DNA of 64,000 nt, from NCBI RefSeq assembly GCF_030013595.1, contig NZ_CP122768.1; one strand, 5' to 3'. Positions 57,588 through 60,500 of the stretch are shown piece after piece (position 1 is the stretch's first letter; each line of letters begins with the position of its first letter). Position numbers and translations under genes: made by a program. The notes below the pieces were generated by a model. It made no database searches and was not told the origin of the DNA. It was given only the letters and a program-made list of their open reading frames with translations. Source of the DNA: Escherichia coli. Its GTDB lineage: Bacteria > Pseudomonadota > Gammaproteobacteria > Enterobacterales > Enterobacteriaceae.

Positions 57588-60500
57588 TTACATGCCGACA
57601 ATAGTACCGGTGTTATCAGTTTCGTTTGCTTCTAACGCTAAACCGTAGAAGCCACCGAGAACAGCGTCTTTACCGCTATTCGTAACCTTATTTGCCGATA
57701 CGCCAGCGACACCATAACTCAGCATATTGAGGTAGTTATAAATATTACCGGTGGTCTTAACCCCCAGAGAATAATCACCCACAATATTTCCACGGTTATT
57801 AATGTCATTCACGGCATTGATCGCGATGGTTTGCCCCAACATATTACTGTTGCTGTTGTTGGTAACATACTTCTGCGTATCAATAGTCAGCGCAGTTCCC
57901 GCCACAATGTCTTTAAAGTTCTCAACACCGTTCAGGGCATTAATGGTCAGCGCGTTGTCCGCTGCGATGGCATTACGGTTATACAGCGTGCCTTTCAGAA
58001 CATTGAAATGCACATCCCCTTTACCGCTGATCCAACCATAGTTCGTGACGCTGTTATCCACGTTCAGATCCAGGTTTTTGTCAGACGCAATCACGCCCGT
58101 GGCGGTATTGTCTTCCAGGCGACCATCGCTGGCGTTGTTCAACGACGCCGCATAAACGTCGAGATTACCGGCGCTGTAAGTGGTGGCATAGTTGTTGTAG
58201 AACATACCAGCCGCACGGATGATGGCATCAGCCCCACTGCTAAGAAGCGCGCGGGTATTATCCAGCGTTCCCCTGGACAGCAGATTAAGCGGACCATTTT
58301 CAGCGATGATGCTGCTGTTATTGTTGTAGACGTTCTGAGCAGAAAGCGTGACACCTTCTTTACCTACGATGCCGCCAACGTTGTCGGTAATTCCAAACAG
58401 CGCGCCGTTATTACGCAGGAAGTTATTCCCGTCGCGGTTTTCGAGGTTGCCGCCAGCGTTAATAACCAGCTTTTTATTCGCCGCGATCAGCGCAGTGTTG
58501 TTATAAATCGTCGATTTAGCATCGACAGAAACATTCTCACCGGCAATCAGACCATAGGCGTTGTCTATGATGTTTGCTGTCAGAGTCACGTCGCCCGTTT
58601 CAGAGGTCAGCGAGCCCTTAAAGCTGTCGTAGTTGCCCGTCAGTGCCAGCGTGACATCGTCATAACCACGAATTTCACCGTAGTCGTTGTTCAGATTGCT
58701 GCCTTTTACAGACAACACGCCGTTCAACGCATGCAGATTACCGCGGTTGTTACCCACGTTGCCCTTCGAATCGATAATCAGATCGCCTGTCGCTTCGATG
58801 GTCGCGTTATTGTTCGCCACGCTATTTGCCGTTAATGCGACATCCCCATAACCCACCATATAGAGATAGTTATACAGGTTGCCTTTGGTCGTCACGTTCA
58901 AGTCAGCGTCACTGACAATGTTGCCACAGTTGTTGATATCGTTAACCGCGTTAATAACGATATTCTGCCCCACCATATTGCTGTTGGAGTTGTTGGTCAC
59001 ATGGCGATTGGTGTTCATCGTCAGGTCGCCGCCAGCAGAAATATCCTTCCAGTTTTCAATACCGTTCAACGCGGCAATATCCAGCCCCTTTTCAGCCGCA
59101 ATGGTATTGCGGTTATACAGGTTGCCGTTATTCACCGTGACATCAACATCGCCTTTACCGCTGATCCAGCCGTAGTTGGTAAGGCTATTCACCACTTCCA
59201 GTGACAGATTTTTATCAGATGCAATAAACCCGGTCGCATTGTTATCGATCATCGTACCGCTGCTGCTGTTTTGCAGCGTGGTCGCGTCGATATCCAGGTT
59301 GCCCGCACTCCAGGTGGTAGCGTAGTTGTTGTAATACGTTCCGCCAACTTGAATAGATGCATCCGCCCCGCTGGTGACCAGAGCACGCGTGTTGTCGAAC
59401 GTGTTCTGTGCCTGGAGAGTCAGAGGACCATCCTCAGCGATAAGACGACTGTTGTTGTTATAGATGTTCTGCCCGGAAAGCTCGATGCCTTCCTTGCCGA
59501 CCATTCCACCCGTTTGCTGAGGCATGCCGAAGTACAGACCATATGCATTACCGAAGCTATTGCCATCGCGGTTTTCAATATTACCGAACGCGTTTATCTT
59601 CAGTTTTTTGCTGGCCACGATCAGCGCTGTGTTGTTATTGACGCCAGACATCGACTCCATCGTGATGTTCTGCCCCATCATGAAGCCGCCGTGGTTGTCC
59701 ACTGAGTTGGCTAACAGGGAGATATCACCCTCTTCAGAGCTGATCACGCCAATGTTATTGGTCAGGCTGCCGCCAACGGCGACTTCAATACCCTGCTTAC
59801 CGCTGATCCCCCCGGTATCGTTACGCAGTGAGCTTCCCTTGATAATCACTTTGCTGTTGGACAGAATTTTGCCCGCATAATCGTCGACCGTGCTGTAACT
59901 TGACAGGGAGACGTTGCCATTAGACGCAATCTGTCCGCCATTGTTATTGATGTTGTTCGCACCAATTTCTACGCCGGTATCTGCAATAATGCCCAGAGAG
60001 TCAGAACTGCCGGTATCGGCGGTTTTGGTTGAACCATTATTTACGCTACCTGCCGCACCAATAACGATATGCCCGGTGGAGGAACGGATCAGACCTTTGT
60101 TGTTATCCACATTACCGTTACTGATAATGGCGATGTCGCCAGTGGTCTGAATATCACCGTTGTTGTTATTCAACGCGCCTGATTCAAGCCCCACATAACC
60201 GCCTCGAATCTGACCATTGCTGTTGTTGAGCGTCCCGGTTTTCAGCGCCACGATACCCGCTTCAATCCCGACAGAACTCCCTTTACCAGAGTTAATCAGC
60301 GTGGCGTTATTGGTATCGACCGCCAGCATACCTGCTGCCGCAAGCTTGCCGTTGGTATTGTCAATCGTACCGCTGTTAACGTAGATATCGCCCATCGTAG
60401 AGATGTTACCCGCACGGGTATTCACGATAGTATTCTTGTTGGTATTGAGCGAGATAGTGCCTACAGATGTCACCGTACCGGTGGTGTTATCCAGAGTACC

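Follow-up and report, generated by a model that had tools for sequence, protein, structure and literature searches.

The subject of this analysis is the gene otpA in a 64,000-nucleotide (nt) stretch of Escherichia coli DNA (contig NZ_CP122768.1 of assembly GCF_030013595.1; the whole stretch is referred to as the window) and, above all, a large tandem duplication within that gene. The 1,270-residue open reading frame (ORF) is OtpA, the TpsA exoprotein of the OtpAB two-partner secretion (TPS; type Vb) system and the orthologue of ECs_1282 of O157:H7 Sakai. The Sakai gene and the window gene share 97.5% nt identity across all 3813 nt, and the gene of pig strain HCP5S3_I2 is 99.9% identical to that of the window, which is a non-O157 allele. 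OtpA combines a TPS domain, an adjoining cognate TpsB, and a passenger predicted to be β-helical, as is typical of TpsA proteins; PF05860 was matched with an E value of 4.6e-33 in a Pfam scan run on amino acids (aa) 72 to 1270, and TIGR01901 was matched above its cutoff on aa 64 to 161 (E value of 7.9e-22). The otpB ORF (539 aa) lies 88 nt downstream of otpA and corresponds to ECs_1283 of Sakai; orthologues of the same length contain POTRA_2, POTRA_3, and ShlB Pfam domains and are labeled ShlB/FhaC/HecB family in RefSeq, and the window otpB ORF itself gave no NCBIfam match. The features of the locus are as follows.

57588 to 61400, minus strand: otpA (TpsA exoprotein), ORF of 1270 aa with a GTG start, orthologue of ECs_1282 (O157:H7 Sakai).
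61302 to 61400, minus strand: probable Sec signal peptide, aa 1 to 33, ending ...FPVASQA/AG, read by eye from the translation rather than by a predictor.
60555 to 61211, minus strand: TPS secretion domain, about aa 64 to 282, with the ANPNGI motif (PF05860, TIGR01901, motif in the translation).
58743 to 59876, minus strand: duplicated unit 1, about aa 509 to 886, 378 aa (similarity profile, diagonal scan, AlphaFold model).
57609 to 58742, minus strand: duplicated unit 2, about aa 887 to 1264, 378 aa (BLASTP, similarity profile, diagonal scan, AlphaFold model).
58812 to 59711, minus strand: high-identity core of unit 1, aa 564 to 863 (BLASTP).
57678 to 58577, minus strand: high-identity core of unit 2, aa 942 to 1241 (BLASTP).
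59529 to 59564, minus strand: predicted α-helical excursion of unit 1, aa 613 to 624 (DSSP on the model, H143-154).
58395 to 58430, minus strand: predicted α-helical excursion of unit 2, aa 991 to 1002 (DSSP on the model, H521-532).
59566 to 59579, minus strand: unit-1 side of the P0008 deletion junction, gene nt 1822 to 1835, microhomology CGAAAACCGCGA (partner site 58432-58445).
59365 to 59370, minus strand: unit-1 side of the P0007 deletion junction, gene nt 2031 to 2036, microhomology GGGGC (partner site 58231-58236).
57588 to 57608, minus strand: C-terminal tail behind unit 2, aa 1265 to 1270 and the stop codon (from the period and the ORF end).
55880 to 57499, minus strand: otpB (TpsB transporter), ORF of 539 aa (domains taken from orthologues of the same length).

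The names otpA and otpB for ECs_1282 and ECs_1283 follow a preprint (bioRxiv 10.1101/2020.04.13.038984) and a review (PMC5422565). According to that review, OtpAB is an experimentally characterized two-partner secretion pair, with the function of OtpA listed as unknown, and it sums up the work of Choi et al. 2007 and of Choi and Bernstein 2009 as reporting TpsB-dependent secretion of OtpA; according to the preprint, the original authors found that OtpA groups with neither the hemolysins nor the adhesins. The window locus resembles the OtpAB locus of O157:H7 (Choi, Dawson, and Bernstein 2007, J Bacteriol 189:3452) in that it has the same gene, the adjoining otpB, and an island of the OI-47 type, with neighbors agreeing with ECs_1281-1298 of Sakai; it differs in carrying the non-O157 allele. 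A match to otpA was found in 381 of 5426 complete E. coli genomes. An identity as a CdiA toxin was considered and rejected: the Pfam scan of aa 72 to 1270 gave only TPS and Fil_haemagg domains, so that a pretoxin or toxin domain is lacking, as is an immunity gene. The genes are arranged as tpsA-tpsB rather than cdiBAI with no small ORF between, and the C terminus is the end of unit 2.

When the front part of OtpA was compared with its end by BLASTP, aa 564 to 863 aligned with aa 942 to 1241 at 184 of 300 identical positions (61%) with 0 gaps and an E value of 2e-115; the protein was split for this comparison, as BLASTP of the whole protein against itself gave the trivial match only. At the DNA level, otpA aligned with itself by BLASTN at 67% identity across 827 nt with an offset of 1134 nt, and a repeat search recovered seven families at a spacing of 1134 nt. 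In a scan of all diagonals, the offset of 378 aa stood 13 standard deviations (SD) above the other offsets, the second-best self-offset being 21 aa, the period of a β-helix coil, and the best ungapped 300-aa self-identity was 0.617, whereas none of 50 shuffles exceeded 0.18. The duplication period is thus exactly 378 aa, that is, 1134 nt or 18 × 21 residues. In-register similarity is traceable from about aa 509 to 872 against aa 887 to 1250; the units are therefore placed at about aa 509 to 886 and 887 to 1264, and the duplicated region at window positions 57609 to 59876. A large internal duplication in the TpsA gene had been proposed in an initial annotation of the window, and these comparisons bear it out: the four peptides quoted there are present (aa 589 to 614 versus 967 to 992, and aa 742 to 756 versus 1120 to 1134), and the diagonal scan displays extended self-similarity at an offset of 378 aa, so the refuting outcome named there, its absence, did not occur. 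The range given for it, 57590 to 59720, covers aa 561 to 1270 and hence the high-identity cores and the tail, but in the gene the duplication starts some 150 nt closer to the 5′ end.

An AlphaFold model of aa 471 to 1270, built on nine two-unit homologues, is all β and consists of regular three-strand coils (mean pLDDT of 95.7, pTM of 0.83). DSSP assigns a 12-residue α-helix to model positions 143 to 154 and another to positions 521 to 532, exactly 378 residues apart. Because the all-β model repeats this α-helix exactly one period later, the two units are predicted to be successive stretches of one β-helical rod, with the same decoration in each, and each unit comprises about 18 β-helix coils of about 21 aa. 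The shaft has weak matches to PF05594 and TIGR01731 together with the 21-aa periodicity; it resembles the short β-helical repeats of filamentous hemagglutinin (FHA) type (about 19 to 21 residues) in being made of such coils, whereas the OtpA duplication is of higher order, involving a block of about 18 coils rather than the coil itself. A β-helix rises by 4.8 Å per coil, and the duplication would add roughly 8 to 9 nm to the secreted rod (18 coils × 4.8 Å). A Foldseek search of the model against the PDB gave nothing significant, with EtpA as the top match at an E value of 0.056; long solenoids align poorly in Foldseek, and for this reason we limit the fold assignment to “β-helix.” On the C-terminal side of its TPS domain, EtpA, a TpsA adhesin of enterotoxigenic E. 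coli (ETEC), likewise has large many-coil tandem modules, three repeats of 228 residues and a partial one, which run on as a single uninterrupted β-helix and jointly bind the blood group A glycan (bioRxiv 10.1101/2024.05.08.593125; PDB 8vbb). OtpA differs in having two 378-aa modules that are 61% identical to each other, and no sequence relationship was detected between the repeats of OtpA and EtpA. The OtpA duplication would also present the decorated surface twice, and by analogy with the EtpA modules, the duplicated module may plausibly raise reach or binding avidity.

A comparison of repeat number among orthologues, which the initial annotation had suggested, yielded two units in E. coli, Enterobacter, and Aeromonas, one in most relatives, whose proteins are 847 to 935 aa long, and three in none found. 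Among the 120 best homologues, the two-unit forms have 1268 to 1301 aa, and their named sources are E. coli, several Enterobacter species, and Aeromonas veronii; more distant relatives of about 814 to 935 aa (from Kosakonia, Pantoea, Mixta, Rahnella, Klebsiella, Leclercia, and others) align only once and have a single unit. When 1.84 billion representatives were searched, proteins with two units formed one 50%-identity cluster, and a three-unit form was found neither among the 120 best homologues nor among these 50%-identity representatives. A neighbor-joining (NJ) tree of 42 units separated all unit 1 sequences from all unit 2 sequences into two clades whose internal groupings broadly correspond: in both, the E. 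coli-like alleles fall together, and Aeromonas branches outside E. coli plus Enterobacter. The one-unit proteins P0041 and P0043 (892 aa) lie outside both unit clades. Because the unit 1s and the unit 2s form separate clades across genera, the tree points to one old duplication followed by independent divergence rather than to repeated duplication or concerted evolution. Between the core units of the window gene, the nonsynonymous divergence (dN) is 0.29, the synonymous divergence (dS) is not computable by NG86 owing to saturation of the synonymous sites, and third-codon-position identity is 0.40, versus 0.29 expected from base composition. Relatives of intermediate length, mostly from Enterobacter and Izhakiella (P0037 to P0040, 1129 aa; P0034, 1205 aa; P0006, 1231 aa; P0042, 1023 aa), are shorter by 40 to 160 residues through losses in or near the second unit, which shows that the C-terminal region also undergoes out-of-register or partial deletions.

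The dN/dS ratio between the window and Sakai alleles was calculated by region and came to 0.025 over the first 508 residues, 0.092 over unit 1, and 0.105 over unit 2 (one allele pair, no site model); on these ratios, both units are constrained by purifying selection. The full 3813-nt two-unit gene is present in 379 of the 381 complete E. coli genomes with otpA, and neither a one-unit nor a three-unit otpA occurs in any of the 381. The other two genomes have partial matches, and the one examined is cut by an IS1 insertion: in E. coli SCU-316 (NZ_CP054371.1; 5289 to 6596 and 10037 to 10318 of the extracted locus, L001), IS1 leaves the last 594 nt of otpA. In the same strain, the acyl carrier protein (ACP) gene of the downstream cluster described below is interrupted by a stop codon, and frameshifts affect grvA and fidL; the otpA island as a whole is degrading in this commensal. 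The 1270-aa form, whose cluster contains 1460 member sequences, is recovered by short-read assemblies too. The unit cores share 64% nt identity, and their longest in-register exact run is 17 nt (P of about 0.16 against codon-shuffled controls); since this run is no longer than such controls give, the alignment carries no apparent sign of recent gene conversion between the units.

Rare one-unit alleles nevertheless exist. In a protein collection of 5.8 billion clusters, three alleles of 892 or 893 aa were found in all (P0007, P0008, and P0035), each with the unit 1 register in front and the unit 2 register behind. In single-switch fits, the switch lies at aa 608 to 614 in P0008 (892 aa, E. coli-like; 13 of 892 mismatches), at aa 676 to 681 in P0007 (892 aa, E. 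coli-like; 21 of 892 mismatches), and at aa 733 to 754 in P0035 (893 aa, from a more diverged lineage; 143 of 892 mismatches). At the nt level, a Sakai-type parent accounts for P0008 with a single crossover, located within the shared CGAAAACCGCGA, and leaves 29 mismatches in 2679 nt; the crossover of P0007 lies at a GGGGC microhomology, the nt junctions of the deletion alleles falling in microhomologies of ≤14 nt; P0002, tried as a parent, fitted more poorly than Sakai-type or window-type parents. Descent of P0007, P0008, and P0035 from an ancestral one-unit gene was ruled out by their chimeric match to two paralogues: their halves are nearly identical to different paralogues, which are themselves 61% identical, and so the chimeras are not ancestral. 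The three alleles are best read from their sequences as recent in-register deletions of exactly one period, which would have arisen independently at least three times, and since the junction homologies are short, we infer replication slippage or illegitimate recombination rather than classical RecA-mediated exchange.

The P0008 gene comes from two unrelated sequencing runs, in which it is identical and lies beside the same disrupted tpsB; P0007 comes from one Logan and one NCBI assembly 1 nt apart, and P0035 from an ENA metagenome assembly. An assembler chimera is an unlikely source of these alleles because the units share no exact word of >17 nt, P0008 and P0007 each recur, and the contigs extend through both flanks. 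In both P0008 samples, otpB is split into ORFs of 378 aa and 152 aa (L004, 5466 to 7085; L005, 4554 to 6173), and the TPS system appears to be decaying in this lineage.

We consider it highly probable (about 0.85) that the repeat is an ancient single in-frame module duplication that is fixed and under purifying selection and that rarely collapses to one module. In this account, an ancestor of about 890 aa, the form of most relatives, underwent one in-frame tandem duplication of its C-terminal shaft before the gene's E. coli, Enterobacter, and Aeromonas lineages separated; the two modules, which make up the C-terminal 756 residues, then diverged separately without concerted evolution, both being kept by purifying selection, and the diverged copies still occasionally lose one period in register at a microhomology, giving a rare in-frame protein of 892 aa. 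The duplication is then a fixed architectural feature of the clade and an ordinary way for such proteins to grow, not a variation switch. Several points weigh against this account. The unit tree is a simple NJ tree without bootstrap, and in it the one-unit proteins P0044 and P0045 (885 and 910 aa) group with the unit 2 clade; an old deletion in a two-unit gene could account for this placement, as could a tree artifact, and an analysis of diagnostic columns that asked whether the pair is an old chimera had one usable column only. The one-unit alleles are known from short-read assemblies. The exact boundary of the duplication is uncertain by about ±15 residues because the unit starts are the weakest part, with the first approximately 55 residues only 27 to 42% identical. 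Finally, the proposed role of the second module draws on analogy with a protein of known binding activity, and PMC5422565 gives no function for OtpA. In the literature searched, which did not cover the primary OtpA papers, no account of this duplication or of the one-unit alleles was found.

A quite different use of the repeat, which the initial annotation had favored, would be a contingency device in which the copies recombine often enough to provide selectable variants of length or antigenicity. That in-register deletion alleles exist, with at least three origins, and that the length variants of 1129, 1205, 1231, and 1023 aa in relatives map to the C-terminal repeat region lends this idea something, and OtpA does resemble repeat-mediated contingency loci in having in-frame tandem repeats in a secreted protein from which in-register deletions occur. 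The OtpA repeats, however, are old and diverged, their copy number is essentially fixed, and they are under purifying selection; the near-identical repeats, strain-level copy number polymorphism, and diversifying selection that characterize contingency loci are all missing. With cores only 64% identical in nt, a longest exact run at chance level, and no conversion tract, the copies offer little for frequent exchange, and the units evolve as separate orthologous lineages across genera. Recombination-driven length variation thus holds to the extent that three deletion alleles exist, but these are rare, no expansion was found, and length is invariant in the 379 full-length complete genomes; one of the alleles stands beside a disrupted tpsB and for that reason looks like decay rather than adaptation. 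Antigenic variation finds no support: the dN/dS ratios of the window allele against the Sakai allele are 0.09 in unit 1 and 0.10 in unit 2. A variation device is accordingly very unlikely. The second module could instead be a neutral passenger, a tolerated extension of no selective value, as one might gather from one-unit relatives that share the same conserved gene neighborhood and from one-unit deletion alleles that have appeared and been maintained in at least a few lineages. Without selective value, however, a segment of 1.1 kb should decay or disappear, whereas both units have remained whole and in frame from before the time when the E. coli, Enterobacter, and Aeromonas genes diverged, at dN/dS values of about 0.1; we regard neutrality as very unlikely.

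The two remaining alternatives deny the duplication itself. The self-similarity might reflect nothing but the generic 20- to 21-residue periodicity and Asn/Gly-rich composition of a β-helix; OtpA does have a 21-aa period, and even aa 281 to 560 and aa 645 to 938 are 29% identical. Against that background, the diagonal at 378 stands alone while other multiples of 21 remain at background, the ungapped 300-aa cores far exceed the maximum of the shuffles, and a nonperiodic α-helical excursion returns exactly 378 residues on, so that this explanation deserves next to no credence. The same is true of a falsely duplicated segment in the assembly of the window, as the 3813-nt gene is present in 379 complete genomes, Sakai included, the copies differ at 36% of nucleotides, and two-unit orthologues occur in Enterobacter and Aeromonas. 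Proneness of the gene to misassembly, which had been suspected, is not supported either: about 21 nt is the shortest k-mer in short-read assemblers, no exact word shared by the copies reaches that length, and short-read assemblies yield the 1270-aa form.

Antisense (plus-strand) ORFs are found within the otpA repeat region at 57831 to 58835 (334 aa), 58879 to 59175 (98 aa), and 59271 to 59705 (144 aa), the longest lying opposite unit 2; rather than being genes, they most likely result incidentally from the codon composition of the Asn/Gly-rich repeat. Downstream of otpAB, and with only a few bases at each gap, the same strand carries a cluster resembling type II fatty acid synthase/polyketide synthase (FAS/PKS) systems (window positions 41071 to 55876, minus strand). 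Its order is AcpS-like, ketoreductase, FabZ/ApeI-like dehydratase, ACP, GcvT-like aminomethyltransferase, a fusion of ketosynthase and chain length factor (KS-CLF; 852 aa), a second KS, a LolD/LolCE-like ATP-binding cassette (ABC) exporter, and FabD-like, together with several proteins without an assigned family. This mix of genes may resemble that of the streptococcal cyl (granadaene) operon. The linkage of otpAB with the cluster was seen in every locus examined, namely, in E. coli (Sakai ECs_1284-1298; L007 and L011) and in Aeromonas, Kosakonia, and a metagenome (L008 to L010), and it holds for one-unit and two-unit forms alike, with upstream neighbors that differ between loci. Because the genes keep the same order in E. 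coli, Aeromonas, and Kosakonia even as the upstream neighbors change, the comparison suggests that the TPS pair and the lipid cluster are one functional unit. In Aeromonas veronii (L008, 1 to 8049), a second, divergent TPS pair, consisting of a CdiA-like exoprotein of 2939 aa with DUF637 and its own TpsB, lies just upstream of the OtpA-like gene, so that two type Vb systems adjoin. The operon-like arrangement in O157 was remarked upon in a 2006 software paper, and a literature search for the combination of TPS and a lipid cluster found nothing functional. It is conceivable, though improbable, that OtpA, OtpB, and the lipid cluster work together in such a way that OtpA carries, is modified by, or cooperates with a secreted lipid, with the module handling the lipid or its target; if this were true, the duplication of the module would have doubled the dose of the lipid- or target-handling part.

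Taken alone, the finding has little weight; it records how one TpsA grew when about 18 coils were duplicated as a block. The finding also provides a clean natural case of in-register deletion between tandem repeats that are about 64 to 67% identical in nt, at microhomologies of ≤14 nt, and a natural pair of one-module and two-module proteins is available for studies of OtpA function. Annotators and typing schemes should expect OtpA of both 892 aa and 1270 aa, neither being an error. The linkage of otpAB to the lipid synthesis cluster is a more promising lead than the duplication.

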